Assembly: GCA_965195345.1 (NCBI GenBank)
Contig: OZ239628.1
Location: forward strand, 704,001 to 768,000
Length of the DNA stretch: 64,000 nucleotides
DNA from: an uncultured Thiomicrospira sp.
GTDB lineage: Bacteria > Pseudomonadota > Gammaproteobacteria > CAKMZV01
Reading direction: 5' to 3'
The first letter of the stretch is position 1; every line of letters begins with the position of its first letter. A program made the position numbers and the translations under genes. Shown here one piece after another: positions 7,905 through 23,440 of the stretch. The notes under the pieces were generated by a model. That model saw only the letters and a list, made by a program, of their open reading frames with translations. It was not told the DNA's origin and ran no database searches.

Positions 7905-9137
7905 CTAATCAACATTCTGCCAGCGGCATGTGCCGTTCTCACCGAATAAAGACTCGGTAAGCTGATTACCAGCAAGCTCTACTTTGGCGAAGCCGTTTAA
8001 TACTCGCAAAGGAGTATCTGGATCATTAGCAGATTGGGTTTCATACCACGTAATCTGGGGTTTCCCTTTCAACTCGCTGGCATTTCCGTAGGGGAGAGAA
8101 CCATGTCCAATGCAACGGCTGCGTATTGGCACGTTATTATCCAACTGATCTGCATAGACCACCGCATTATGCTCATGCCCCCAATACCAATATACGTTTT
8201 GATAACGAAGTTTATTATCGGAATTTGAAAGATTGCTCATTACTTGTTCGTATAGCTGAGTCTTGTTTTCTCCTTTAAGCTCATAGCCGGTATGATGAGA
8301 AAGTATAATAATGCCGTTTTTCGCAGGCAGTGATTTCAACCATTTTTGTTGTGCCTCACCCAGCTCTCCATCCATATACAATTGCCACTTATCTGAATAA
8401 TACGCGCTATCCAGCCCGATGATCAACCAATTATCATTTTCTAAGGCAAAATAACTGCACTTAGCTTGTAAAGGAAATTCTTGTTCCAAAGCATAAAAAT
8501 ACGATTTTGCACCACAATACATTTCATGATTGGAATTCAGAGTAAACGCGCCTTTTGAACCCTTTGGCCAAATATCAATCAGATTATTCTTTTCCTGATC
8601 CATCGTACCAGCATAATACACATCACCCAGATGTACGGTGTAATCGACCTTTTCCTTTTGAATGACATGAGCTATTTTTTCAGCTGGAGATAAAGGAGAT
8701 TTTCTCCAAAAACCAGTTCCCCAGTCCCCAACAATACAAAACGACGCATCATTCGCAATCGGTACAGTCACTGGATTTGTGTTGAATGTTGCTTGATCGT
8801 CAATGTGTTCCAGCCAGCATGTGAGAGCCTCTAGCCAACCAAAGTCAAGTAGTTCCCATTTCCCGGATCCAAATAAAGAACCATCAGGTCTAACTAACGT
8901 ATCATAATCAGTTTTGCTTCTGGGTAAATCTTTGGCATCCTCAGGGAATAAAACAGACATTGCATGTGCAATTTCAGTATGATGCGGAGCAGAAGATTTA
9001 TTCCCCTCAATAATTTCCCAAGCTTTACGATGTGCATCTTCCAACAATTTCTTCAATGCATCTTGTTCGCTGTCACTGGCCTTACGTTTAAATTCACTAT
9101 GCGCCTTTACCAGTCTTTGTTCCAAATCATTCATCAT
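7905..9137 (-). CDS. Calcineurin-like metallophosphoesterase
   Basis: GDWG, HLGDVYY, SNHEMY, SHH and WGHEH metal-binding motifs; helical N-terminal extension. Confidence 0.85.
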   Translation of the reverse strand: MMNDLEQRLVKAHSEFKRKASDSEQDALKKLLEDAHRKAWEIIEGNKSSAPHHTEIAHAMSVLFPEDAKDLPRSKTDYDTLVRPDGSLFGSGKWELLDFGWLEALTCWLEHIDDQATFNTNPVTVPIANDASFCIVGDWGTGFWRKSPLSPAEKIAHVIQKEKVDYTVHLGDVYYAGTMDQEKNNLIDIWPKGSKGAFTLNSNHEMYCGAKSYFYALEQEFPLQAKCSYFALENDNWLIIGLDSAYYSDKWQLYMDGELGEAQQKWLKSLPAKNGIIILSHHTGYELKGENKTQLYEQVMSNLSNSDNKLRYQNVYWYWGHEHNAVVYADQLDNNVPIRSRCIGHGSLPYGNASELKGKPQITWYETQSANDPDTPLRVLNGFAKVELAGNQLTESLFGENGTCRWQNVD

Positions 9138-9554
9138 TTCTCCAATTGATCATGTATAAGTGTTATCAAGTGTTAGATTCATCCAACTAAGTATTTCTTT
9201 GATGAGCCGTTTTCTCTCGATGTTTCAGCATTATCGAACAAACATCCTTATGAGTTTGGTAACCAAATAATAAGTGGTGGTTTCTCACCCTCCACATGCC
9301 TATTTTTTACTCGCTGCTCATTTAAGTACAGACATGCTCACTTGGCCTCTTCGCTTTTATAGACCATGATAACAGCAATCTTGTTTTGTTTAATATCAGT
9401 CCGCAACTTTTTTACGGCGCTTGTTCTATATTATCCGCGCTAAAGTCACCATCACACAAAGTCTCTAAGCAATACGTCTAAATAGAGTATTATATTGTTA
9501 TTATTCCTCAAATTTCTCATAACAGACAGTAATACATACTGAACAAGTCAGCTA

Positions 9555-9719
9555 ATGACTGATTAAACTTTGACCTTAAAAAAGATCACCCATTATCTAA
9601 AAATTACTGATAAAACTGCTTATCGTTTAGCTGTAGAAGGTACATTGGCAGATTTTAAGGCTGGAGGTAGTTGGCGTTTTAAACGAGAATATATAGAATG
9701 CCGGATTGTTGAACAATAA
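9555..9719 (+). pseudogene. Excisionase-like helix-turn-helix (HTH_17) regulator with in-frame stop at codon 4
   Basis: MTD*TLTLKKITHYLKITDKTAYRLAVEGTLADFKAGGSWRFKREYIE matches the LTLKEVAEYLK..KTAYRLA..G.IPGFKVGGSWRF pattern. A TTG at 9570 could rescue a shorter product. Confidence 0.75.
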
Positions 9720-9758
9720 AGCAACCAATAAAGCAACCAATAAAGCAACCAATAAAGC
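9714..9758 (+). repeat. 12-bp tandem repeat (CAATAAAGCAAC) x3.75
   Basis: Units start at 9714, 9726, 9738 and 9750 (partial); ends 23 bp before the hsdM1 start. Confidence 0.95.
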
Positions 9759-9781
9759 GCAGCCATGAGACAAGAAAGCAG

Positions 9782-11266
9782 ATGACAACTGAAAAAATAA
9801 CGCTCTCGCAGTTAGAGCAATACTTATCAAAAGCAGCATGGATATTAAAAGGCCCTATTGATGCTTCTGATTTTAAAGTTTACATATTCCCGTTACTATT
9901 CTTTAAACGAATTTCTGATGTGTATGATGAAGAATATCGTGTAGCATTAGAAGAGTCTGATGGTGATGAAGAGTATGCAGCATTACCAGAAATGCATCGT
10001 TTTGAAATCTCTGAAGACTGTCACTGGCAAGATGTCCGTGAAACCACCACAAACGTAGGTGCTGCGATTGAGAACGCCTTGCGTGGTATAGAGCAAGCTA
10101 ACCAAGAATTCCTTTATGGCATCTTTGGTGATGCGCAGTGGAGCAACAAGAACAAACTGTCTGATGCTTTACTCATCAATTTAATAGAACACTTCTCTCA
10201 ATATACTCTGGGTAATCAAAAAGTTGACCCTGACATGCTCGGTAATGCTTACGAGTACTTAATCAAACATTTTGCTGATTTAACCAATAAAAAAGCCGGT
10301 GAATTTTATACGCCTCGTTCGGTGGTGCATTTGTTAGGGCTGATTTTAGACCCCCATGAAGGACAAACCATTTACGATCCAGCCTGCGGTACCGGTGGAA
10401 TGCTGCTTGAGTGTGTTGATCACTTAAAAGACAATAAAGAAGATTATCGAACGCTGAAAATATACGGTCAAGAAAAGAACCTAACATCCAGCTCAATTGC
10501 CCGTATGAACATGTTTTTACATGGCATTGAAGACTTTGAAATATTGCGTGGCGATACCTTACGTCATCCTGCATTTTTTGAAGCCGATGGGCTGAAAACC
10601 TTTGATTGTGTGATAGCAAACCCACCATTTTCCTTAAAAGACTGGGGTGCAGAAAATTGGGCTAATGACCCTTATGGCAGAAATATAGCCGGTGTGCCAC
10701 CAAAAGGCAATGGTGATATGGCTTGGGTGCAGCACATGGTTAAGTCCATGAATAGCACTGGACGTATGACCGTTGTATTGCCGCATGGCGCACTTTTTAG
10801 AAAGGCTGCCGAAGGAAAGATACGTAAACAGCTATTAGAACAAGACATGCTTGAAGCCGTTATCGGTTTAGGTCCTAATGTGTTCTACGGTACACAGTTA
10901 GCCGCTTGTGTCATGGTGTTCAAACAAAACAAATCAGCCGACAAAAAAGGCAAAGTATTGTTTATTGATGCATCAGATCAAATCCGCGTTGGTCGAGCAC
11001 AAAACTTCTTAGAGCCAAACCACATTCAACAAATTTATGACTGGTACCACAACTATCAAGATGTAGAAAACTACGTAAAAGTCGCTTCAATGGACGAATT
11101 AAAAGAAAACGACTTTAACTTAAATATTCCACTGTACGTTGAAAAGATCATTGAAAATAACTTGCCTTCTGTTAAAGAAGCTATGAGCGGTTTAAAACAA
11201 GCATGGCAATCAAGCCTTGATGCCGAAGAAAAATTTAAAAATATACTAAAAGGATTTATACAATGA
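9782..11266 (+). CDS. hsdM: Type I R-M methyltransferase subunit M1 (NPPF motif IV)
   Basis: HsdM N-terminus (YIFPLLFFKRISD), GEFYTP, YDPACGTGG, NPPF. Confidence 0.95.
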   Translation: MTTEKITLSQLEQYLSKAAWILKGPIDASDFKVYIFPLLFFKRISDVYDEEYRVALEESDGDEEYAALPEMHRFEISEDCHWQDVRETTTNVGAAIENALRGIEQANQEFLYGIFGDAQWSNKNKLSDALLINLIEHFSQYTLGNQKVDPDMLGNAYEYLIKHFADLTNKKAGEFYTPRSVVHLLGLILDPHEGQTIYDPACGTGGMLLECVDHLKDNKEDYRTLKIYGQEKNLTSSSIARMNMFLHGIEDFEILRGDTLRHPAFFEADGLKTFDCVIANPPFSLKDWGAENWANDPYGRNIAGVPPKGNGDMAWVQHMVKSMNSTGRMTVVLPHGALFRKAAEGKIRKQLLEQDMLEAVIGLGPNVFYGTQLAACVMVFKQNKSADKKGKVLFIDASDQIRVGRAQNFLEPNHIQQIYDWYHNYQDVENYVKVASMDELKENDFNLNIPLYVEKIIENNLPSVKEAMSGLKQAWQSSLDAEEKFKNILKGFIQ

Positions 11267-13593
11267 GCACATTTGACAGTACAAAACGCCCTTTACGTGA
11301 CATTATTCAAGCTATTAAAAAAGGTGAATACCAATTACCAGATTTTCAAAGGGGATGGGTTTGGGATGATGAACACGTTCGCTCACTTTTAGTAAGTATT
11401 TCTCGTTCATTTCCTATTGGTGCTGTTATGACACTTGAAACTGGCGGTGATGTGAGCTTTCAAGTTAGACCTATTGAAAATGTAAAATTAGATACGCCAG
11501 TTGAACCCGAGAAGTTAATTTTAGATGGGCAACAAAGACTTACTTCATTAACTCAAGTACTCGGGTTAACTGGTCCAGTAAAAACATTCGATCATAAAAA
11601 ATCTGAAGTAGAACGTTATTATTACATCGACATACCTAAAATCCTTGTTGGTGGAGATGTCGATGAAGCATTTTATTCTGTCGGAAAAGAAAAACGTAAA
11701 ACTTCAAATTTTGGTAGAGATATTGAATTGGACCTTTCTACTCCTGAAAAAGAAGTAGAGCAACTTCAATTTCCTTGTAACAAAATCCTCGATTACGATG
11801 ACTGGCAGGACAACTGCTACGAAGCTGATAAATTTCAAGAATTTAAAGCTTTCAAAAAACTCGTTCTTGAACCATTTAGAGATTACAACGTACCTATTAT
11901 TGCTTTGAATAAACATACATCTAAAGAGGCTGTATGCTTGGTTTTCGAAAAAGTGAATACAGGGGGAGTTTCTCTGACCGCATTTGAACTTATCACCGCA
12001 ACATTTGCGGCCGATGGTTATAAATTACGTGAAGATTGGTACGGTGATCCGCAAACCAACGCAGTCGGTCGTTTAGAAAGGCTAAAAGAAAGTAAACTGC
12101 TTAAAGGACTACAACCCACAGATTTCATTCAAGCCATTACGTTATTGCATACATACGAACTAAATAGACTAGCTAAAAGCAAAGGTAAATCTGGTAATCA
12201 ACTTCCAGGCATTAGTTGTAAACGTAAAACCATGCTTAATTTACAGTTGTCCGACTATAAAAAATGGGCTGACAAACTTGAAAATTCATTCCATCTAGCA
12301 GCTAAGTTCTTAAATAAAGAATGTTTTTTTTCTAATAGAGACTTACCTTATCGTACTCAATTAGTGCCTCTTGCAGCTATTATGACTCATTTAGGAGAAA
12401 CATGGTTAGAACCTAAAGTTAACCAGCGTTTAAGCCAATGGTTTTGGTGTGGTGTAATGGGGGAACTCTACGGAAGTGCCATTGAAAATAGATTTGCTAA
12501 TGATTTAGAAGATTTTTTAATCTGGAATACTGATGAAACAAAAATACCTCGTACCGTATTTGATGCTTCATTTCATCCAAACAGGTTGGAAACACTAAGA
12601 ACTAGAAATAGTGCAGCTTATAAAGGTTTACACATATTAACACTACGAAATGGTGCTCAAGACTTCCTTTGGAGAGCAGGGGTTCAAGAACTCGATAATA
12701 TGGGGGAGAGTTTAGATATACATCATTTATTTCCTAAAAAGTGGTGCATCAAGAAAAATATTTCTCGAAGTATTTATGACTCAGCAGTTAATAAGAGCCC
12801 TATATCTTACAAAGCAAATCGTAAAATTGGGGGAGATGCACCTTCAAAATATCTTAATAAAATTCAAAATGACGTCAATGTAGAGTTATCAAATCTAGAA
12901 ATGGATTCCATTTTGGAAACTCATTTAGTTGACCCAGGCGCTTTCAGAAGCGACGACTTCATTAAATTTATTCATCTACGGTCAATAAAGTTAACCGAGT
13001 TAATTTATACCGCTATGGGTAAATTAGATTCATTACCCGAAGATATTAGTTTATTTGCATCTGGCTCAGCTGAACAAGAAAGCCAAATATTAAATAACAA
13101 ACTCAGCCGTGGTGAATCGGAAATGTTAGAGTTTAAATCTTCCATGCGTTGGAATATCAGTGCAAACCAGCAAGATAAGAAAATGGAGGATATTATTTTA
13201 AAAAACATCGCGGCTTTTAGTAATGGTTACGGCGGAACATTGATGATCGGTATAAATGATGATGGAGATGTTTTGGGTTTAAATGCAGATTATTCTACGT
13301 TAAAAGAACCTAATAAAGACCATTTTGAACTTCACCTACGTAATCTGGTTAATTCAAACCTTGGTAAAGATTTCGCTACAGCAAATTTAAATATTAGCTT
13401 TCCGCTTAAAGACGATACTGAATTTTGTCAAATTGAGATTAAACGAGGTAATGAACCTAAGTACCTTGAAATTCCTGATCAAAATGGTCAGAAAATAGAA
13501 AAATTTTATGTGAGGAGTGGTAACTCTTCACAAGAATTATCAATTAATGAAGCCGCAAAATATATTAACTTGCGTTTTAAGGGGGCACGATGA
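11263..13593 (+). CDS. GmrSD-like protein (DUF262 + HNH/DUF1524-like) fused to a C-terminal Schlafen AlbA_2 domain
   Basis: LPDFQRGWVW, LDGQQRLT, FEKVNTGG (DUF262); DIHHLFP...N...N (HNH-like); ESEMLEFKSS, AAFSNGYGGTLMIGIND, YVRSGNSS (AlbA_2, from about 13100). Confidence 0.85.
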   Translation: MSTFDSTKRPLRDIIQAIKKGEYQLPDFQRGWVWDDEHVRSLLVSISRSFPIGAVMTLETGGDVSFQVRPIENVKLDTPVEPEKLILDGQQRLTSLTQVLGLTGPVKTFDHKKSEVERYYYIDIPKILVGGDVDEAFYSVGKEKRKTSNFGRDIELDLSTPEKEVEQLQFPCNKILDYDDWQDNCYEADKFQEFKAFKKLVLEPFRDYNVPIIALNKHTSKEAVCLVFEKVNTGGVSLTAFELITATFAADGYKLREDWYGDPQTNAVGRLERLKESKLLKGLQPTDFIQAITLLHTYELNRLAKSKGKSGNQLPGISCKRKTMLNLQLSDYKKWADKLENSFHLAAKFLNKECFFSNRDLPYRTQLVPLAAIMTHLGETWLEPKVNQRLSQWFWCGVMGELYGSAIENRFANDLEDFLIWNTDETKIPRTVFDASFHPNRLETLRTRNSAAYKGLHILTLRNGAQDFLWRAGVQELDNMGESLDIHHLFPKKWCIKKNISRSIYDSAVNKSPISYKANRKIGGDAPSKYLNKIQNDVNVELSNLEMDSILETHLVDPGAFRSDDFIKFIHLRSIKLTELIYTAMGKLDSLPEDISLFASGSAEQESQILNNKLSRGESEMLEFKSSMRWNISANQQDKKMEDIILKNIAAFSNGYGGTLMIGINDDGDVLGLNADYSTLKEPNKDHFELHLRNLVNSNLGKDFATANLNISFPLKDDTEFCQIEIKRGNEPKYLEIPDQNGQKIEKFYVRSGNSSQELSINEAAKYINLRFKGAR

Positions 13594-15065
13594 CCCAACC
13601 TTCTTTTGATCAAAAAGCCTTAGAAAAATATCTATGGGAAGCCGCTGTTATCCTTAGGGGCACCATAGATGCGGGGGATTACAAGCAATACATTTTTCCG
13701 CTCATGTTCTTTAAACGGCTCTCTGATGTGTACGATGAAGAGTTTAACAATGCCTTGCGCGATAGTGATGAGGATTTAGAATACGCCGCGTTTACTGAAA
13801 ATCATCACTTTCAAATACCGGACGGTGCGCACTGGAAAGATGTGCGTGAAACCACTACCAACATTGGTTTGGCACTACAAAACGCGATGCGTGCCATTGA
13901 AAAGGCAAACCCAGACACCCTTGAAGGTATTTTTGGTGATGCTAGTTGGACCAATAAAGACCGCCTAACTGACGCCATGCTCACCAACTTAATTGAGCAT
14001 TATTCACAGCACACACTTGATTTAAAAAATGTGCCAGATGACAAGTTAGGTAATGCTTACGAGTACTTAATCAAAGAGTTTGCTGACGATAGTGGCCACA
14101 CCGCCGCAGAGTTTTACACCAACCGTACTGTGGTTAAATTAATGACCATGATAATGGACCCACAACCGGGTGAGTCCGTGTATGACCCTACTTGTGGCTC
14201 GGGTGGTTTATTACTTAACTGTGCTTTGCATCTTAAAGATGAAGGCAAAGAATACCGCACGCTTAAATTATACGGACAAGAGATTAACCTATTAACCTCA
14301 GCCATTGCCCGTATGAACATGTTTATGCACGGCATTGAAGAGTTCGATATTGTCCGTGGTAATACCTTGAGTAATCCAGCTTTGCTTGAAAACGATGAGC
14401 TGAAAAAATTCAACGTGATTCTCGCCAACCCGCCTTATTCAATTAAATCATGGGATAGAAAGAGCTTTGAAAGCGATCCATATGGCCGTAATGTATGGGG
14501 CACACCACCGCAAGGTTGTGCGGATTATGCCTTTCAACAACATATTCAAAAAAGTCTTAATTTAGATAATGGCCGTTCAATTTCATTATGGCCACACGGC
14601 ATTTTGTTCCGTGATGCAGAAGCCGAAATACGTAAAAAAATGATTGAACAAGACCAAGTTGAATGTGTCATTGGTCTTGGTCCAAATCTATTTTATAACT
14701 CGCCTATGGAAGCATGTCTGTTAATTACTAAAACAAGCAAAGACGAAAATAAAAAAGGCAAAGTACTGATCATTAATGCGGTGAAAGAAGTTAAGCAAGA
14801 TAAGAATATCGCCTACCTTGAACAAAGCCATATTAAACGTATTTACAATGCTTATAAAAATTATGCTGATGAAGATGGTTTTAGCAAAGTCGTTACCATA
14901 GACGAAGTTCTCAAGTTTAAAGCCAGCTTAAACATGGCGCTTTATGTTAGTAATGTTGATAACAGTAAAACACAAATACCATTAGATGATGCACTCGCTA
15001 ACTGGCAAACATCATCAAAGCAGTTATCAAGTAGTATGGAACAGTTATTTAAGGAATTAGGTTAA
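13590..15065 (+). CDS. hsdM: Type I R-M methyltransferase subunit M2 (NPPY motif IV)
   Basis: YIFPLMFFKRLSD, AEFYTN, YDPTCGSGG, NPPY; clear paralogue of M1. Confidence 0.95.
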   Translation: MTQPSFDQKALEKYLWEAAVILRGTIDAGDYKQYIFPLMFFKRLSDVYDEEFNNALRDSDEDLEYAAFTENHHFQIPDGAHWKDVRETTTNIGLALQNAMRAIEKANPDTLEGIFGDASWTNKDRLTDAMLTNLIEHYSQHTLDLKNVPDDKLGNAYEYLIKEFADDSGHTAAEFYTNRTVVKLMTMIMDPQPGESVYDPTCGSGGLLLNCALHLKDEGKEYRTLKLYGQEINLLTSAIARMNMFMHGIEEFDIVRGNTLSNPALLENDELKKFNVILANPPYSIKSWDRKSFESDPYGRNVWGTPPQGCADYAFQQHIQKSLNLDNGRSISLWPHGILFRDAEAEIRKKMIEQDQVECVIGLGPNLFYNSPMEACLLITKTSKDENKKGKVLIINAVKEVKQDKNIAYLEQSHIKRIYNAYKNYADEDGFSKVVTIDEVLKFKASLNMALYVSNVDNSKTQIPLDDALANWQTSSKQLSSSMEQLFKELG

Positions 15066-16223
15066 ATGTCAAAAGTTAAGACAGATTTAAAAATTGACCT
15101 AAATAATTTGAATAAATCCAGCTGGAAAACTTACCGCTTTGATGAAATTGCTCAAAACATTTCAGAGCGAGTTGATCCTAATAATACCGATTTAAAAGTA
15201 TATATTGGCCTTGAACATATTGACTCTGAATCCTTACACATAAAGCGACACGGCACCTCTGATGATGTAAATGGTCAGAAATTAAAGTTTTATAAAGGTG
15301 ATGTTATTTTTGGTCGTCGCCGTGCGTATCAGCGTAAAGCAGGAATTGCTACTTGGGATGGTTTTTGTTCAGCACACGCTTTAGTGCTTAGGGCTAATCC
15401 TGATGTAATTGACCCAGAGTTATTTCCATTTTTTATGCATTCAGATTTGTTCATGAATCGTGCTATTGACATCTCAGTGGGTTCCTTATCACCAACGATT
15501 AATTGGGGGACACTCAAGCATCAAGAATTTTTGCTTCCACCGAAGGAAATTCAGGCAAACGTCATAAAGTTATTATCTACGATGGACTGCGTTATTCAAA
15601 AAAATAAAAATACTATATCGGCATTGAAGACTGCAAAGAAATCAAAGTTAAAATCATATTTTTCAAATGAAATTGAATATAAACAAATCAGAGATATTGG
15701 TGAAATTGTCACAGGTTCAACGCCTTCAACTAAAAAAGAAGAATATTGGGGGGAAGATTTTCAGTTTGTAACACCTGCGGATATTTCAGATGATACTTTT
15801 TCTGTGTTTGATACAGAAAGGAAGATTACAAGCGAAGGCTTATCTGTTTCGAGAGAAATTCCTGCCGATAGTTTAATGGTAGTTTGCATTGCATCTATTG
15901 GAAAATTAGCAATATCACAAGAAAAGTGTGGAACAAATCAACAAATCAACACAATTATTCCTAATGATGGAATAGAGGTTAAATATTTATACGAGGTGTT
16001 AGAACTTTTCAACGAGTTAATTACATCTAAAGCAGCAAAATCAGTTGTTCCAATTTTAAACAAAGGTGATTTTGGATTAATAAAAATACCAATTCTTAAT
16101 CCTGATTTAAGAAGTCAGTTATTAAATGAATCTGAATATTTTGATAATGCTATTCAAAACTCGACAGTAAATATAAAAAATAGCGAACAACTACATATAA
16201 GTATTATAAATAAGGTGTTTTAG
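15066..16223 (+). CDS. hsdS: Type I R-M specificity subunit
   Basis: Two-TRD layout with conserved spacers (LPPKEIQ, IVTGSTPST, NQQIN, IKIPI); lies between hsdM and hsdR. Confidence 0.9.
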   Translation: MSKVKTDLKIDLNNLNKSSWKTYRFDEIAQNISERVDPNNTDLKVYIGLEHIDSESLHIKRHGTSDDVNGQKLKFYKGDVIFGRRRAYQRKAGIATWDGFCSAHALVLRANPDVIDPELFPFFMHSDLFMNRAIDISVGSLSPTINWGTLKHQEFLLPPKEIQANVIKLLSTMDCVIQKNKNTISALKTAKKSKLKSYFSNEIEYKQIRDIGEIVTGSTPSTKKEEYWGEDFQFVTPADISDDTFSVFDTERKITSEGLSVSREIPADSLMVVCIASIGKLAISQEKCGTNQQINTIIPNDGIEVKYLYEVLELFNELITSKAAKSVVPILNKGDFGLIKIPILNPDLRSQLLNESEYFDNAIQNSTVNIKNSEQLHISIINKVF

Positions 16224-16225
16224 GT

Positions 16226-19207
16226 ATGGGATTTACTGAATTAAATAGTGTGGAGCACTACATCATCCATCAAATGAGTGGCGTTAACTTAAACGCTTCT
16301 CAAGAGAGTAACCAAATTAGCGAACCTCATGGCCAATACGGTTTGCAATGGCAATTCCAATCGGCTGAGCAGATTGGGCAGCTTGACCGTGGTGTTAACG
16401 AGGTTTTAGTTGAGTCTGTATTGGTTAGGGCATTAATTCGTCTTAACCCTGAGATTGAAGCTAATCCTAATTTAGCAGATGAAGTAATACATAAACTCCG
16501 TGCTATTCTAATTTCGGTCAATCAAGTGGGCTTAGTGATGGCCAATGAAGAATTTTTTGCTTGGATGACAGGCGAAAAAACCATGCCGTTTGGTGAAAAT
16601 AACCGCCATGTGCCTGTAAAGCTAATCGACTTTGATGATTTAACCCGCAACGATTATGTCGTGACGAATCAGTTTCGCATTCATCACAAAGAAACAAAAA
16701 TACCTGATGTAGTATTAATGATTAATGGTATTCCGGTGGTGGTCGGTGAAGCTAAAACACCAATTCGCCCATCAGTAACGTGGTTAGACGGCGCGCATGA
16801 AATACACAACATTTATGAAAATGCTGTACCACAATTGTTTGTGCCTAATATTTTATCGTTTGCTACCGAAGGCAAAGAATTGTTTTATGGTGCCATAAAA
16901 TGCCCGTTAGAGTTTTGGGCACCTTGGCGTGTTGAGGATGATCAACTAAGCCGCTCTGTTGGTTTATCGAGTGTTGGCGCAGAGCTGACCAATTTATTAA
17001 GCCCAGTGCGCTTGCTTGATATTATGCGTAATTTCTCATTGTTTACAACGAATAAAAAGAAACACCGCACTAAGATAATACCTCGTTTTCAGCAATACGA
17101 AGGGGCTAATAAAATTGTTGAGCGTGTGATTGACGGTAGGATTAAAAAAGGTTTAATTTGGCATTTTCAAGGCTCAGGTAAATCATTGTTAATGGTGTTT
17201 GCTGCACAAAAACTTCGCCGTGCTGCACAGCTTAAAAGCCCAACCGTCATTGTGTTGGTCGATAGAACCGATTTAGATACCCAAATTAGCAGCACATTTA
17301 ATGCCGCCGATATCGCTAATGTGGAGTCAACCGATAGCATTAAAGAATTACAACAAATGCTTGAGCGTGATACCCGTAAGATTATTATCTCAATGATTCA
17401 CAAATTCCGTGATGCTAAACCTAATATGAATGAACGTGAGAATATCATTGTATTAGTGGACGAGGCGCATCGCACCCAAGAAGGTGATTTAGGTCGTCAA
17501 ATGCGTGCCGCTTTACCCAATGCTTTCTTATTTGGTTTAACTGGGACGCCCGTAAACAAAGCGGATAAAAATACTTTTTGGGCATTTGGTGCCGAAGAAG
17601 ATAAAGGCGGTTATATGTCACGTTACACCTTCCATGACTCCATTCGTGATGATGCCACATTGCCATTACACTTTGAGCCACGTTTAGTTGATGTGCATGT
17701 GGATACCCAAGCTCTTGACCAAGCATTTGCTGAATTTAAAGAAAGCGCGGCATTAAACGATGAAGAAGCCGATGCGCTCAATAAAAAATCAGCCAGTATG
17801 GCAACCTTTTTAAAATCACCTGAACGTATTGCCAAAATAGCGAAAGACATAGCTGAACACTTTAAAAACAAATTAGCACCACAGGGCTTTAAGGCTATGA
17901 TAGTCACGCCAGACAGGCATGCCTGTGTGCAGTATAAAGAAGCGTTAGATAACTACTTCTCAACAGAGGCCAGTAAAGTGGTTATTTCAACCACCGCGAA
18001 TGATGACTTTGAATTTAAGGAAAAGTGGGGAATAGACAAGAGCCAACAAGAAAAAATTGTTGATGAGTTTAACGCTGTGGATTCTGACCTTAAATTTATT
18101 ATTGTTACTGCTAAATTGTTAACGGGTTTTGATGCACCGATTTGTCAAACAATATACTTAGACAAATCATTAAAAGATCATACCTTGTTGCAGGCAATAT
18201 GTCGTACCAACCGTTTATATCCGAATAAGGCGTTTGGCTGTATTGTTGATTACTTTGGTGTTTTTGACGATGCCACAAAAGCATTAGCGTTTGATGAAGA
18301 GAGCATCAAGCAGGTTATTACTAACTTAAGTGAATTACGCTCTCGTTTACCACAAGCAATGGCTGACTCATTAAAACACTTTGATGGCGTAGATAGAACG
18401 CTTGATGGGTTTGAGGGCTTAGAAGCTGCACAAAATGCTATTGGTACTGACGACAAAAAAGATGCCTTTGCAAAAGATTTCAAGTACCTGTCAAAGCTAT
18501 GGGAATCATTATCACCAGATAATATTTTAGACCTATATAACCAAGACTATAAATGGTTAGCGCAAGTATTTGAATCAGTAAAACCAGCTTCAGATAATGT
18601 AGGTAAGATGCTGTGGTTAGCACTTGGTGCACAAACCACTCAGCTAATACATGAAAACATTCATGTAGGTGAAGTACATACCTTGGATGAGTTTGTACTT
18701 GATGCGGATGTGATTGAAAATATATTCAACAATCCAGAGCCAAAAAAGATCAAGCAACTCGAAAAAGACTTAATCCAACGCTTTAAAAATCACGGTGGCA
18801 GTGCCGAATTTAAAAAGCTCAGTAAACGTTTAGAAGAACTGCGCGATAAAGCAGAAAAAGGTTTAATTACCTCAATAGAATTCGTTAAAGAGCTGTGCGC
18901 AATTGCCAAAGAGACGATATCCGCCGAAAAAGAATTACAGCAAGAAGCACAAGAAAAATCACCTAAAGCCGCATTGACAGAGCTGTTTTTAGAGTTAAAG
19001 ACTGAGAAAACACCAGCTGTAGTTGAGCGTATTGTTACCGACATTGATGCCATTGTTCGAGTTGTGAAATTCCCTGGTTGGCAAAACACCACAGGCGGAG
19101 AACGCGAAGTACAAAAATCACTGCGCAAAGCATTACTTAAATACAAATTACATACTGATCAAATTTTGTTTGATAGAGCTTATGCCTATATCAAAGAGTA
19201 TTATTAA
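16226..19207 (+). CDS. hsdR: Type I R-M restriction subunit
   Basis: PD-(x)-EAK nuclease motif, QGSGKS Walker A, DEAHR, LTGTP, LLTGFDAP, QAICRTNR helicase motifs. Confidence 0.96.
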   Translation: MGFTELNSVEHYIIHQMSGVNLNASQESNQISEPHGQYGLQWQFQSAEQIGQLDRGVNEVLVESVLVRALIRLNPEIEANPNLADEVIHKLRAILISVNQVGLVMANEEFFAWMTGEKTMPFGENNRHVPVKLIDFDDLTRNDYVVTNQFRIHHKETKIPDVVLMINGIPVVVGEAKTPIRPSVTWLDGAHEIHNIYENAVPQLFVPNILSFATEGKELFYGAIKCPLEFWAPWRVEDDQLSRSVGLSSVGAELTNLLSPVRLLDIMRNFSLFTTNKKKHRTKIIPRFQQYEGANKIVERVIDGRIKKGLIWHFQGSGKSLLMVFAAQKLRRAAQLKSPTVIVLVDRTDLDTQISSTFNAADIANVESTDSIKELQQMLERDTRKIIISMIHKFRDAKPNMNERENIIVLVDEAHRTQEGDLGRQMRAALPNAFLFGLTGTPVNKADKNTFWAFGAEEDKGGYMSRYTFHDSIRDDATLPLHFEPRLVDVHVDTQALDQAFAEFKESAALNDEEADALNKKSASMATFLKSPERIAKIAKDIAEHFKNKLAPQGFKAMIVTPDRHACVQYKEALDNYFSTEASKVVISTTANDDFEFKEKWGIDKSQQEKIVDEFNAVDSDLKFIIVTAKLLTGFDAPICQTIYLDKSLKDHTLLQAICRTNRLYPNKAFGCIVDYFGVFDDATKALAFDEESIKQVITNLSELRSRLPQAMADSLKHFDGVDRTLDGFEGLEAAQNAIGTDDKKDAFAKDFKYLSKLWESLSPDNILDLYNQDYKWLAQVFESVKPASDNVGKMLWLALGAQTTQLIHENIHVGEVHTLDEFVLDADVIENIFNNPEPKKIKQLEKDLIQRFKNHGGSAEFKKLSKRLEELRDKAEKGLITSIEFVKELCAIAKETISAEKELQQEAQEKSPKAALTELFLELKTEKTPAVVERIVTDIDAIVRVVKFPGWQNTTGGEREVQKSLRKALLKYKLHTDQILFDRAYAYIKEYY

Positions 19208-19504
19208 GGTGTTCTGGATAGTTAGATTTCCTTGTTAATTACCTTATTTTAAAATCATTCATCCTATGCTTAGTAAGTCTAGTATCTACAGAGTTTAGGG
19301 GACTATTTTTTGAAAAGCATCGCTTTAAATCACTGTAATTTTTTTATCGCTGTATTTTGACGATTATTAGTAATCTTGATTTTGTTTGAGCATTGCCAAT
19401 ATTTGACTGTTTGAATGTCTTTATTTACGCATAGAAAACTAATCTATTCCTCAAAAACCGCATCATGAGATGGATGATATTTCCGATAATCCTAAAAGGT
19501 CTCA

Positions 19505-19588
19505 ATGAAAAGAAGATACAGCCAAGAACAAATAATCAAGGCAATCAAACGCCATGAATCAGGGTTAAAATTTGAAAAAGCAGCGTGA
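19505..19588 (+). mobile_element. IS3-family transposase OrfA N-terminal remnant
   Basis: MKRRYSQEQIIKAIKRHESGLK resembles IS3/IS407-group OrfA starts. A KPHS...LGGNTP fragment like an OrfB C-terminus follows. No intact transposase. Confidence 0.5.
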
Positions 19589-19775
19589 AATGATTAAACC
19601 GCATTCAAATACTGGTGCTTATTTGGGGGGCAATACACCCATCCAGTAACAGACTACTTAAAATCAAATTTTGAAAAAAAATAGCTCATAAAGTTCAGCA
19701 TCAACAGTCAAAAAAACGCACAGTGGTTTATCGACCTGTCTGCATACTATTGATATGAAATTTCTTTATTTATTA

Positions 19776-20864
19776 CTACTGTGACACAATTTTCAAGAGA
19801 TGAGTGAATGATAATATTGCTGAGGTTCTACCACTTGCAGGGCGTAGTTCATCTATGATGCCGGCTTGCTTTAATTCACGAATATACTGCGCAGCACGTT
19901 GCCGTTGAATTCTTAGTATTTTGTGTGCATCAGTTGCTCGAAAAATCGGTGTATTGAATAACATATCTAATAAGAATATTGATTGATCCGAGCGAATCAC
20001 ATCTAGCATCTCCTTCTTTTTATAATCATAAAGCTCAATGATTTTTCTAACTAGTATCAGATTTTTTTCAGATTGTTCAACTACAGCGTTTAGAAAAAAA
20101 TCAACCCACCCTAGCCAATCATTTTGACGAGAAATATTTTCTAGTTTTTGATAGTAAGTATCTCGATTAGATTCGAAATATTCACTGAGATAGAAGGACG
20201 GACTGACAACGCTACCCTTTCTAGCAAGAAACAACGGAATCAAGATGCGTCCAATTCGGCCATTACCATCATCGAATGGGTGAATTAACTCAAATTGTGC
20301 ATGTATGAGTGCTGCCTGAATAATTGGGTCTAGAGTATCGTCGTTCAAGTTAACGAAACCAATAAATTGCTCTAAAAGATCCTGCAAAATATAAGGTGCA
20401 GGAGGTACGTAAGTGGCTTGCTCAATCGTACATCCTCGCGGTCCAATCCAGTTTTGGGTCGCACGGAATCGCCCTGGATTTTTATCTTCTCCACGAACTC
20501 CTTGCATGAGGTTTTCATGCATTTGTCTTAGCATGTGGAGTGTCAGTGGCTTGTCTTTTAACTCAGATCCAGCTATTCTGAGAGTGCTCCTATAATTTAT
20601 GATTTCTTGTATATCGGCACTCTTTTCAGGATCAAATTTTTCTCCAGCCTGTTGCTGATACACCTCGTTCGCAGTGGCGATAGTCCCTTCTATCCTTGAT
20701 GATAGTTCTGCTTCCTTCATTATTAACGGTGAAAGTAGTACATCTGGATTTACAAGGCTTTCTAATAGACCATCATAACGGGATATACAAGCATTTGCCC
20801 TACCGACCAAGGCGATGCTATTGCTTAAGTCCAACTTTTTTGGCGGGAAGTAGTTGAGGTTCAT
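19776..20864 (-). CDS. Fic family protein (Fic_N + Fic + C-terminal HTH-like region)
   Basis: EAELSSRIEG and the canonical HPFDDGNGRIGR motif. Start chosen at ATG 20864; the ORF track extends to 20927. Confidence 0.92.
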   Translation of the reverse strand: MNLNYFPPKKLDLSNSIALVGRANACISRYDGLLESLVNPDVLLSPLIMKEAELSSRIEGTIATANEVYQQQAGEKFDPEKSADIQEIINYRSTLRIAGSELKDKPLTLHMLRQMHENLMQGVRGEDKNPGRFRATQNWIGPRGCTIEQATYVPPAPYILQDLLEQFIGFVNLNDDTLDPIIQAALIHAQFELIHPFDDGNGRIGRILIPLFLARKGSVVSPSFYLSEYFESNRDTYYQKLENISRQNDWLGWVDFFLNAVVEQSEKNLILVRKIIELYDYKKKEMLDVIRSDQSIFLLDMLFNTPIFRATDAHKILRIQRQRAAQYIRELKQAGIIDELRPASGRTSAILSFTHLLKIVSQ

Positions 20865-20881
20865 TTCTGTATGATAGAAGA

Positions 20882-20941
20882 TACACAAAGTGGTTTGTGT
20901 AACATGAATTGACATTATAACATACACAAAAGACTTTGTGT
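20882..20941 (-). promoter_or_regulatory. Extended -10 promoter (TGnTATAAT) flanked by two ACACAAA-N4-TTTGTGT palindromic operators
   Basis: Palindromes at 20883-20900 and 20924-20941; minus-strand TATAAT at 20919-20914 preceded by TGT. Confidence 0.7.
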
Positions 20942-21135
20942 CCGGTACAACAACTACTAATAGAGAGATCAGAGGTGGAAGAGTGCGATCAGGTGATCAA
21001 AAATCAGTTCAAGCTAATTGAGGTTTGAATTTAGAGCGCACAAACAACTCCAAGATTCTCTTAGTAGAACAAATAATTACAGCAACGAGAATACTAATAC
21101 AAGATGGTGCATTCTCTGCACTGATCACGATCGCT

Positions 21136-21489
21136 CTATGTCTCTTGGACGAACATCACGGTGTTCCCAGCTGGATCGCTGACTTGAGCAAGTTTTATAA
21201 ATCCTAAGTCCTGCGTTTCGCTAGGGGTTACACCAGCGTTTTCACAAACTGCCCTCTGTACTTCGATATCGTGGACACTACAAACTACAAATGATTTACC
21301 TGCAAGGCTTGAGTCAGGAGCAACCGAAACCTGAATCCAAGCATTTTCTACCAGCTTCCATTCGGCGATTCCCTCATCAGGCGTAACATCAGGCTCGCGC
21401 CCAAGCCATTTGGCGTACCATTCGACAGCTTCAGCGAAATCATTCACGTGAAGAACGGAGACTACACTCGTGAAATTATTATTGGGCAT
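21136..21489 (-). CDS. VOC/glyoxalase/bleomycin-resistance family protein
   Basis: V.DFAEAVEWYAKWLGR...AEW...DPAGNTV pattern; AAGGA RBS. Confidence 0.85.
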   Translation of the reverse strand: MPNNNFTSVVSVLHVNDFAEAVEWYAKWLGREPDVTPDEGIAEWKLVENAWIQVSVAPDSSLAGKSFVVCSVHDIEVQRAVCENAGVTPSETQDLGFIKLAQVSDPAGNTVMFVQET

Positions 21490-21698
21490 ATTTAGTTTCC
21501 TTAATAGTTAGTTTTCAGTAAAACACCAGCAATCGTGATTTTATTTTTCTATAATTATTTCTGACATGGTCATTTTTCCTACACATGTATATGATTCAAA
21601 TGTCGCCAGAAAAAAGCACACCGTTAACTTACCACAAAGCAAGTGGTAATGGATTAGCTTGGAGAAGTTTTTTTCGTTTTTAGTGTGTGAAATAAATG

Positions 21699-22235
21699 CT
21701 ATTGGTAGGTAACTTGCACGCCAATTTCTTCTAACATTGTTGGAAGGGTTATGCAACGTATTCTCTCATGTGAGCATATTTTTGGCATTTTCAAAAACAT
21801 TTTACTGTCATTATCCTCTGATGATTCTTCTGTCACCACAGAGACATCAGACCCTTTCAGCTCCAATGCATATAGGATCAATTGAAAATCTGCACCATCA
21901 ATTGCCGCTTCCCTCTCTTTCTCGTACTCCTCAGAGGCTAATTCTTTTTGGTTTTTAATGCGCTTATTGCACCAATTATTATCAATACGTCTGTGGGTTT
22001 TTCCCTTTTCAACTTCGACCTTTTTTTGAGTTTTAACGCTTTTTAAAAAACCCAGTTTTTCAATTACCAGACCTTTTGATACACTGCCAATCTCTTCTTT
22101 TACAGAATCCAATAAAATTATTTGTTTTTCCGAAAAACTTGATTTGATTTTATTGAACAAGATATCTTCGTCATCAAAAGGTTGATAATAACGCACAAAA
22201 GATAATAAAGAAGACGTATCTATTACAAATTTCAA
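21699..22235 (-). CDS. PIN-domain protein (DUF4411-like)
   Basis: FVIDTSSL, V.EE, ADFQLILYA, VVTEE, KMPKIC; 4-bp overlap with the upstream peptidase gene. Confidence 0.8.
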   Translation of the reverse strand: MKFVIDTSSLLSFVRYYQPFDDEDILFNKIKSSFSEKQIILLDSVKEEIGSVSKGLVIEKLGFLKSVKTQKKVEVEKGKTHRRIDNNWCNKRIKNQKELASEEYEKEREAAIDGADFQLILYALELKGSDVSVVTEESSEDNDSKMFLKMPKICSHERIRCITLPTMLEEIGVQVTYQ

Positions 22236-23440
22236 AAGTCATCCCCGTAAAGAAATGTATCTATATATCCCTTCTTGACTTGCTTAATATTTGGCTTAAA
22301 GCGTTTAATGATATCCATTTCTTCAATAGTCCCTTCAAAAAAAGCATAGTGATATACTCTTTTTTCTAAATTTGAATGAATTGGCTTTGGTTGTGAGAAA
22401 AATTGGATTTTCCCTTGTCTTGTGTCCTCTTCCCTTTTTTCTGCATCTCTGAGCATTTTCTCGTTATGTTCATCTTTTAAAGACAGTCTAAGACTTTCGT
22501 ATGCCCTCCAAGTAATTTTTTGTTCATTGAGGAAGTGTGCATAGATAGCTAATCTGCTGATATGAATATCCTTTGATAATTTTTTTATTTCAGCATTATG
22601 TATATCAGGTTGATCATCAAATTTTTTATACATTTCTTCAGTGGTTGTTTTCTCATTTAAAATAAATGCAAATGCAAATGCATTACACCAATTCTCTATA
22701 TCTTTCAAGCTTTCTTCGCGGGCTTTTTTAAATGGAGATTGATCAATCTCTTCAGAGTCAAGAAGATAATGACCAAGTTCATGAGCTAATGTAAATATCT
22801 CTCTTTTAAATGCATTTTGTTGACGTTTAATGGCAATAGTATTTGGTTTTAAAAACACTCCCTCCCAAGATATTGCTTTGTCAGGTTTTGTGTGGTTTCT
22901 GTCAATAAATTCATAGACTATGATTCCTAAATTAGCAAATGTTTGAATCATTAAGTTCAAATATTTTCGATCATCTCTACAATTATTTAACTTTGTGAAA
23001 TCAACTTGATCTCTAATTTTTTGCGCAACTATTTGAGGGTTGGTTCGCACATCGTAAGTTTTTAATTGCCGTTTTGGAAGTTTATATCCCGAAAGTTTTA
23101 CAACAGCGCTTAGTCCTTGCGAAGAAGATTCAATTTCGCTTATTTTCATACGATCGCGAAACTCTAATGGACTATTAAATGATTCTTTACGAAAGAATAA
23201 AGATGTGTCTCCTGATCTTGGAATATCTTGAGGATTAGTGTAGAAAGATAACCCTTTTTTGAAAAAAGCTTTATCAAGTGCCTTCAATGCATTTAACAGA
23301 ATGTTTGAACAAAAAACATTAGATTCGCTGAATTCTCTCTTGCGTTTTGCATTGATTTTTTCCAATATATCATGCTTATTAACATCGTACAATTCCATCA
23401 GATGTTCAAGCCTTTTATAGTTTATTTCTATTGTGCTCAT
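22232..23440 (-). CDS. ImmA/IrrE family metallo-endopeptidase
   Basis: REIFTLAHELGH (HExxH), E.WCNAFA, IS..A motifs; degenerate HTH-like N-terminus. Confidence 0.85.
   Translation of the reverse strand: MSTIEINYKRLEHLMELYDVNKHDILEKINAKRKREFSESNVFCSNILLNALKALDKAFFKKGLSFYTNPQDIPRSGDTSLFFRKESFNSPLEFRDRMKISEIESSSQGLSAVVKLSGYKLPKRQLKTYDVRTNPQIVAQKIRDQVDFTKLNNCRDDRKYLNLMIQTFANLGIIVYEFIDRNHTKPDKAISWEGVFLKPNTIAIKRQQNAFKREIFTLAHELGHYLLDSEEIDQSPFKKAREESLKDIENWCNAFAFAFILNEKTTTEEMYKKFDDQPDIHNAEIKKLSKDIHISRLAIYAHFLNEQKITWRAYESLRLSLKDEHNEKMLRDAEKREEDTRQGKIQFFSQPKPIHSNLEKRVYHYAFFEGTIEEMDIIKRFKPNIKQVKKGYIDTFLYGDDF

Follow-up and report, generated by a model that had tools for sequence, protein, structure and literature searches.

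A GmrSD-Schlafen fusion gene between the paired methylase genes of a PacII-like type I restriction-modification operon

A class of type I restriction-modification (R-M) systems with two methylase genes, arranged in the order M1 (NPPF, N6-methyladenine or m6A), M2 (NPPY, N4-methylcytosine or m4C), S and R, has been described and is reported to include more than 300 systems (Morgan et al., 2016; PMC5100572). The two methylases of this class share 45-55% identity, and extra open reading frames (ORFs) lie between them in six of ten characterised systems. Here we describe a locus of this type in a 64,000-nucleotide stretch of DNA from an uncultured Thiomicrospira sp. (contig OZ239628.1, positions 704,001 to 768,000; the window), in which a gene for a GmrSD-Schlafen fusion protein (the insert) is located between hsdM1 and hsdM2.

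GmrSD-like genes are often present at or inside type I loci (PMC4619093; bioRxiv 2024.01.29.577857). One example is TgvAB, which resides inside the type I operon of V. cholerae VPI-2 and defends against modified phages independently, without HsdR (PMC11411939). T-even phages inject specific GmrSD inhibitors, Ip1-3 (PMC12373910). Prokaryotic Schlafen proteins have been described as effectors fused to sensors, and DUF262-Schlafen fusions constitute the group pSlfn7, with 109 members (PMC13056530). Both members of this group tested in that study are short (589 and 591 amino acids, aa). EcoSlfn7 from E. coli UC4224 reduced T7 plating 538-fold, its strongest protection, and the second protein gave none. 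In that paper, phage-triggered, Mn-dependent tRNA cleavage is worked out only for RorSlfn5, and the manner in which fused partners switch on prokaryotic Schlafen domains is left open. Fusions of DUF262, HNH and HEPN domains, as well as a suicidal RNase that backs a DNase within one protein, were already predicted in 2013 (PMC3710099). PrrC, an ABC ATPase-HEPN protein, depends on an R-M partner in the PrrC-EcoprrI pair.

The insert and its type I scaffold

The locus comprises five plus-strand ORFs, all without frameshift or internal stop, in the order and at the coordinates that an earlier note on this DNA had given. The two ATGA overlaps reported there, at 11263-11266 (hsdM1/insert) and 13590-13593 (insert/hsdM2), are likewise borne out by the ORFs and the sequence. 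The hsdM2 and hsdS genes abut as TAAATG, and 2 bp separate hsdS from hsdR. The genes, and the three domains of the insert, are as follows.

9782..11266, + strand: hsdM1, m6A-type methylase subunit (494 aa; Pfam HsdM_N and N6_Mtase; NPPF motif IV at aa 280-283)
11263..13593, + strand: the insert, GmrSD-Schlafen fusion (776 aa; Pfam, AlphaFold2 model)
11293..12006, + strand: DUF262 (GmrS) domain of the insert (PF03235 GmrSD_N at aa 11-248, E 2.8e-31; QR 29-30, DGQQR 88-92, FxxxN 228-232)
12583..13032, + strand: HNH / His-Me finger nuclease domain of the insert (H487-H488...N510...N519)
13069..13587, + strand: Schlafen/AlbA_2 domain of the insert (PF04326 SLFN_AlbA_2 at aa 618-759, E 1.6e-16; E618-x4-E623-x-K625 at 13114-13137)
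13590..15065, + strand: hsdM2, m4C-type methylase subunit (491 aa; HsdM_N and N6_Mtase; NPPY at aa 280-283, NSPME loop at aa 370-374)
15066..16223, + strand: hsdS (385 aa; Pfam Methylase_S; first target recognition domain, TRD1, of a cytosine-recognising family)
16226..19207, + strand: hsdR (993 aa; TIGR00348 at 546 bits against a cut-off of 285; Pfam HSDR_N, SWI2_SNF2 and ResIII)

Judged from its sequence and predicted structure, the insert is a GmrSD protein (DUF262 plus HNH) of BrxU fold that carries a Schlafen tail. A DUF262/ParB-like NTPase (aa 1-250) is followed by a helical region, the HNH domain (aa ~441-590), a linker and the Schlafen/AlbA_2 domain (aa ~603-775). The domain calls of the earlier note are supported by Pfam for the GmrSD_N and SLFN_AlbA_2 parts, and by motif alignment together with the structural model for the HNH part. 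The database searches it had proposed were successful for DUF262 and AlbA_2, whereas PADLOC yielded only partial DUF262 matches and NCBIfam held no model that matched the insert; in the Pfam scan no model matched the HNH part, DUF1524 not being scored.

Conservation of the insert was assessed with the best 120 of 7989 protein matches, which include 40 full-length fusions (query included; 62-85% identity), one protein with a NERD tail, two that are truncated at the N terminus, and 77 that lack a tail. The DUF262 motifs, the HNH residues and the Schlafen motif are invariant in 40 of the 40 fusions, and across 101 wider relatives the conservation of the HNH motif reaches 90% or more. Intact catalytic motifs are supported for the HNH and Schlafen domains and for HsdR, which was not inspected residue by residue. 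Mean identity among the fusions is greater in the HNH region (0.70) than in the Schlafen tail (0.59). The ratio of nonsynonymous to synonymous change (pN/pS) against two relatives, for which synonymous sites are saturated, is 0.18-0.36 over all domains and 0.29-0.36 in the Schlafen domain. The HH...N...N residues align with DHIYP...N...N of BrxU through a weak stretch (9.9 bits) of a match whose whole-sequence E value is 3.7e-18.

An AlphaFold2 model from a 101-row alignment (pLDDT 94.8, pTM 0.87) replaced one from 40 rows that was poor in DUF262 (pTM 0.58). The top fold match of this model is BrxU (Z 19.8, 489 aligned residues), and the large root-mean-square deviation (rmsd, 19.8) of the match indicates that the domains are placed differently in the insert model. 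Residues 449-567 resemble the HNH domains of Cas9 proteins (Z 5.2-6.2). The tail resembles the AlbA_2 protein DIP2311 (Z 13.1, rmsd 3.3 over 141 residues) and the tRNase domain of SAMD9 (Z 11.5-12.1), with rmsd values of 3.3-4.1 for the tail matches overall. A homodimer prediction for residues 430-776 (score 0.02) was uninformative either way.

The scaffold around the insert is assigned by sequence to the described m6A/m4C two-methylase class and is PacII-like. An upstream hsdM with NPPF and a downstream hsdM with NPPY are followed by S and R, M2 groups with cytosine methyltransferases, and TRD1 of HsdS is of the cytosine type. M1 and M2 are 54% identical over 457 aa. The best Protein Data Bank (PDB) match of M2 is 7vru_B (603 bits, versus 430 for 7vru_A), which carries N375-S-P-M-E379 with the same numbering as M2.PacII (PMC5100572). 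HsdS matches 7vru_C (E 5.6e-63), with ~59% identity in TRD1 (82/140 identities at aa 19-158, counted manually on the HMMER midline) and far less likeness in TRD2.

The gap between the methylase genes

Genomic context was read for the best 80 of 200 GTDB loci that encode relatives of the insert. Three of these loci carry full fusions (Leucothrix, Geopsychrobacter and an Akkermansiaceae metagenome-assembled genome), and all three place the gene between an NPPF M1 (75-87% identity) and an M2 (74-78%). The recurrence between paired hsdM genes that the earlier note had asked about is therefore observed at every other fused locus with context (3/3), one of which (L004) has a Fic gene added between the insert and M2. 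The remaining 77 loci encode tail-less cores beside single-M type I systems (29), type III-like systems (10), DISARM-like systems (5) or none of these within the DNA available (33, some on short contigs), and none of the 77 is located in an M1-M2 gap. As a complete gene with varied R-M neighbours or none, the tail-less core appears to need no particular R-M partner.

Methylase queries against sets of 400, 401, 301, 107 and 3 entries (genomes, plasmids and viral contigs) yielded 21 further M1-M2 loci with both genes readable. This count leaves out a plasmid hit (H28, unfetched), three cut loci (L176, L184 and L202), two loci with a single M gene (L200, L201) and the genomes of the fused loci L001 and L003, around which searches were centred. 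The gap is devoid of ORFs of at least 60 aa in 10 of the 21 loci and is occupied by other genes in 11, and the GmrSD-Schlafen fusion is found in none of the 21. The cargo of the filled gaps consists of two other GmrSD-type genes (L175 and L195), two AlbA_2-HATPase genes (L173 and L197), a DUF4062-HATPase gene, a PDDEXK_3 gene, a gene that weakly matches a Y1 transposase, and four small unassigned genes. One of these loci, L195 (4032-8914), combines a DUF262-HNH cargo that ends in a HEPN-like RNxxxH motif with an M2-S fusion of 884 aa.

Exchange of cargo is evident among close relatives. The M1 tree unites the window, L001, L003, L004, L175 and L184 in a single clade (SH-aLRT 100). Within it, L175, whose M1 is nearest to that of the window (89%), carries a different GmrSD cargo (23% identity to the insert). 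In an independent sediment sequencing run (X5), the end of M1 (11241) and the start of M2 (13590) stand in one 1959-base contig with ~1700 other letters between them, and another contig of the same run matches the insert at 96%. Runs X1-X4 derive from one study that is possibly the source of the window, and were not counted as independent support; an opposite-strand joint (11019/11358), present in a single X2 contig with a depth of 3, was disregarded. The insert also differs from its neighbours in composition, with a GC content of 35.3% (0.25 at third codon positions) compared to 39.6-40.0% (0.34-0.38) for M1, M2 and R.

On the basis of these sequence comparisons, the M1-M2 gap is a swappable cargo slot. 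Given that the cargo is exchanged (L175 and the X5 contig) or absent (10/21), the R-M system needs no insert of this kind. The ATGA overlaps had been taken to imply translational coupling of the insert to both methylases. At the M1 stop, however, 16 of 24 loci show an N-TGA overlap regardless of whether any cargo follows, and only one of the three fused relatives does; the overlap thus marks the slot rather than a special partnership. We therefore reject special coupling of the insert.

No additional fused-clade locus was found among 80 metagenome loci (where the patterns fell in the core), three viral loci, 74 plasmid records, 60 relatives, 133 genomes around L004 or 250 around L003, and a blastn search with L071 did not find a relative of the core in E. 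coli. The linkage to M1-M2 consequently rests on four loci.

C-terminal tails and possible modes of action

For a count of tails on GmrSD cores we took the 150 top-ranking cluster representatives found with a full-length profile, which favours Schlafen-bearing matches. Of these, 110 have a full core, and a C-terminal tail is present in 26 and missing in 84. The tails include six Schlafen domains, five protein kinases, two DUF5655, two DUF4357, one TOPRIM and one DUF6416, and nine are unannotated. The Ex4(E/D)xK motif is kept in all five other Schlafen-bearing full-core representatives. Protein P0122, like the slot cargo of L195, ends in RNxxxH, a motif typical of HEPN RNases. An exchange within the window protein's own clade is seen in P0041 (a cluster of two), whose core is 78% identical to that of the window protein and carries a NERD nuclease tail at the same linker in place of Schlafen. 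Separately, five proteins (P0160, P0174, P0186, P0205 and P0214) combine GmrSD with a C-terminal Ser/Thr protein kinase and grouped in the first core tree; we found no description of them in the literature examined.

On a 32-row core tree the Schlafen label changes seven times, and at least six of these changes, which may be gains or losses, are forced by strong branches. A single origin of GmrSD-Schlafen fusions is rejected by the approximately unbiased (AU) test (p 2.8e-5 with 32 rows; p 4.7e-57 with 31 rows, in which NERD is included and P0267 dropped), with the rows chosen from ~120 after the first tree had been viewed. By these sequence trees, the Schlafen-bearing cores are polyphyletic. 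The protein P0267 has a Schlafen domain 55% identical on a very distant core, which suggests domain shuffling.

The reading that we favour, with slightly better than even confidence, is that the insert acts on its own as a type IV enzyme encoded by a single gene, backed up by a tRNase in cis and co-expressed from the cargo slot. Two layers of defence would then travel together and work separately. In the R-M layer, for which the family is established and the activity and site are what we infer from it, M1(m6A)-M2(m4C)-S would mark a split host site and HsdR would cut unmarked DNA. The insert, presumably co-transcribed by virtue of its position in the slot, would use its DUF262 domain to bind and hydrolyse nucleoside triphosphate (NTP) and thereby gate the HNH domain, which would cut modified-base phage DNA that escapes HsdR, as extrapolated from BrxU, GmrSD and TgvAB. 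The Schlafen tail would be a metal-dependent tRNase that is kept quiet in cis, and that might be released when the core engages modified DNA or is jammed by a phage GmrSD inhibitor, giving growth arrest as a back-up. This last step is modelled on RorSlfn5 and on the repeated acquisition of Schlafen tails.

Our preference builds on what is observed, namely the anatomy of the protein, its intact and conserved catalytic motifs, the behaviour of the slot and the repeated gain of tails; from these we infer all of the activities, what triggers them and which DNA modification is sensed. Favouring it are the motifs of three modules (40/40), the BrxU fold and the AlbA_2 and SAMD9 matches of the tail. 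It is further favoured by the partner-independent tail-less core, by a slot that is empty (10/21) or holds other cargo (11/21), by the swaps at L175 and in X5, and by the action of TgvAB without HsdR. The differing GC content of the insert, the tails on 26 of 110 cores, the polyphyletic Schlafen cores and the NERD swap in P0041 also count in its favour.

Several observations weigh against this preferred reading. Identity between the insert and BrxU is only 14-16%, and specificity for modified DNA is therefore an assumption; in the open-access literature we found no tested member of this GmrSD branch. BrxU cuts methylcytosine DNA broadly. A C5-cytosine methylase gene that looks intact is present in the host, which should also make m4C, such that broad, BrxU-like cutting would be self-toxic and the specificity of the insert must differ or be narrower. 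T7 is a phage with unmodified DNA, and since the tested DUF262-Schlafen protein acted most strongly against it, fusions of this kind do not necessarily respond to modified DNA. Finally, all four fused loci with readable context (the window, L001, L003 and L004, from three phyla) lie in the M1-M2 gap, as would also be predicted for an R-M-dependent effector.

This last pattern also speaks for a PrrC-like guard, in which the fusion would bind the M1M2S/R complex, and the complex would hold the Schlafen tRNase latent until a phage anti-restriction protein acting on it sets the tRNase free. The four fused loci (4/4, versus 0/77 for tail-less cores) have M1 genes in one clade (SH-aLRT 100), and PrrC offers a precedent. 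However, with a sample of four, transfer of whole operons accounts for the linkage equally well. The same M1 clade swaps its cargo, the Fic gene separates the insert from M2 in L004, and the N-TGA overlaps are generic. Furthermore, the 148 bp available upstream of a 75%-identical fragment whose tail is not visible (L089) contain no hsdM1 end, and independent GmrSD-Schlafen fusions such as L177 sit beside a single-M type I locus. Linkage to R-M genes is seen at all four fused loci, a small sample; the core is unlinked at many loci. We hold the guard model to be distinctly unlikely.

A more novel reading, which we consider less likely than not, is a self-guarding enzyme that would cut modified phage DNA and release its own Schlafen tRNase upon a block of its nuclease or of the m4C/m6A type I complex. 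This branch would then represent a chassis that repeatedly gains fail-safe tails (Schlafen several times, NERD, HEPN-like, kinase and TOPRIM), traded in the M1-M2 slot.

Another possibility is a sensor-effector abortive system. Its GmrSD core would serve mainly to sense a change in NTP/dNTP, a DNA mimic or a protein of the phage, with the Schlafen tRNase as main effector and HNH secondary. EcoSlfn7 protects most against T7 (538-fold) with no HNH motif, and the sensor-fused effectors described for prokaryotic Schlafens (PMC13056530) fit this arrangement. It nevertheless seems unlikely to us, because the HNH residues are invariant in all 40 fusions, the HNH region is more conserved than the tail (0.70 versus 0.59), and the tail is missing in most relatives (84/110 representatives). 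Least probable, in our estimation, is that the Schlafen tail is a nucleic-acid-binding or specificity add-on comparable to DUF4357 and DUF5655 tails rather than a suicide RNase. Many core tails do look like binding domains or are unknown (DUF4357, DUF5655, DUF4268 and DUF6416), extra domains are also noted in PMC4619093, and the SAMD9 AlbA_2 structure 7ksp was solved with DNA. Yet Ex4(E/D)xK is kept in all 40 fusions and in the five additional Schlafen-bearing representatives, and other tails are enzymes (NERD, kinase and TOPRIM) or carry a HEPN-like motif.

Genomic surroundings and comparison with known systems

A small regulator gene upstream of hsdM1, which we take to be of the excisionase type, is broken:

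9555..9719, + strand: broken small helix-turn-helix (HTH) regulator gene (translation has a stop at codon 4)

A perfect 12-bp tandem repeat (9714-9758, 3.8 copies, 100%) lies at the end of this gene, just upstream of hsdM1, and L175 has a separately broken (frameshifted) counterpart of the HTH gene, also before M1. Promoter and terminator scans gave counts at chance (34 versus 35.9 and 6 versus 7.8). Divergent from the R-M operon, at 7905-9137 (- strand), is a gene for a calcineurin-like metallophosphoesterase of 410 aa, which has an additional region at its N terminus. On the other side, 19776-23440 (- strand) contains a Fic gene of the SoFic type (PADLOC SoFic, E 2e-107). It is accompanied by a gene of the glyoxalase family and by two overlapping genes, DUF4411 and Peptidase_M78, that resemble RmrA/CapP-type modules; the DUF4411 protein is presumably PIN-like. 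The island with these genes ends before the ATP synthase operon, and tal and atpB are not adjacent in the two same-genus genomes compared, so the ends of the island are not fixed. No dnd or ssp genes, which SspE/DndI-type proteins would have as neighbours, are among the ORFs scanned at 7905-23440, and the DndB family was not found in the 99.7% complete genome, in which the other dnd/ssp families were not searched genome-wide.

Elsewhere, the host genome has two more type I systems besides that of the window. In one of these (G000:C1:246190-253656), a gene for a 516-aa P-loop ATPase is situated between hsdS and hsdR. The C5-cytosine methylase gene and a HATPase-like partner (G000:C1:1289825-1298807) adjoin a divergent three-gene set that we presume, from its appearance, to be Zorya type II.

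A GmrSD protein whose Schlafen tail looks catalytically intact is an immediate candidate for a bacterial counter-move to the Ip inhibitors. In addition, the insert makes the question of how Schlafen domains are activated testable in one gene, and the gap between M1 and M2 in type I operons of the m4C kind offers a practical hotspot for the discovery of defence genes.

The scaffold shares with the PacII class (PMC5100572; PDB 7VRU) the gene order, the M1/M2 identity, the NSPME loop, a PacII-like TRD1 and the presence of an ORF between M1 and M2. It differs in its TRD2, which is unlike that of PacII, and the passages of PMC5100572 on interspersed ORFs leave these unnamed. The insert itself has the traits of GmrSD/BrxU proteins (DUF262 motifs, a His-Me finger motif and a BrxU-like fold) and resembles BrxU/GmrSD (PDB 7P9K), TgvAB and RloF in its DUF262 motifs (QR, DGQQR and FxxxN), its HNH domain, its top fold match to BrxU and its embedding in a methylation-based system. 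In contrast to BrxU, it occupies a separate branch (14-16% identity in structural alignments) and has HH instead of DH. It is further distinguished from GmrSD, BrxU and TgvAB by its added Schlafen domain and its m4C-type host operon, and, unlike TgvAB, it is encoded by a single gene.

By Pfam architecture (DUF262 at the N terminus, Schlafen with Ex4(E/D)xK at the C terminus), the insert falls in pSlfn7, and long forms like it account for 7 of 30 supplement rows examined and are not among the two proteins tested (PMC13056530). We identified EcoSlfn7 as WP_028985442.1, a 589-aa protein encoded in a P2-like prophage, in agreement by eye with the published insert end. It lacks a [DEH]HxxP (HNH) motif and has only trace similarity to the window clade (4.8 bits in the best stretch against the profile of the clade). 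Orthology with the insert was considered and rejected, as there is no full-length homology and the length and middle domain differ. The published group thus joins two barely similar protein types, of which only the short form was tested, and the two-nuclease form is outside what was tested, EcoSlfn7 being short, prophage-borne, barely related and HNH-less. With PrrC-EcoprrI the insert has in common an NTPase-linked RNase domain encoded within a type I locus, whereas its NTPase is ParB-like, its putative RNase domain is Schlafen, and dependence on R-M is a property of PrrC.

The earlier note had put the combination forward as a candidate new system, which the comparisons do not support: the M1/M2 class with interspersed ORFs (PMC5100572), embedded GmrSD genes (TgvAB and RloF) and DUF262-Schlafen fusions (PMC13056530) have all been described. 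In the open-access literature, we found neither a characterised DUF262-HNH-Schlafen protein nor its link to two-methylase loci. Compared with known systems, therefore, the parts and the hotspot are familiar, and it is the two-nuclease DUF262-HNH-Schlafen architecture and its repeated origin that hold the interest.

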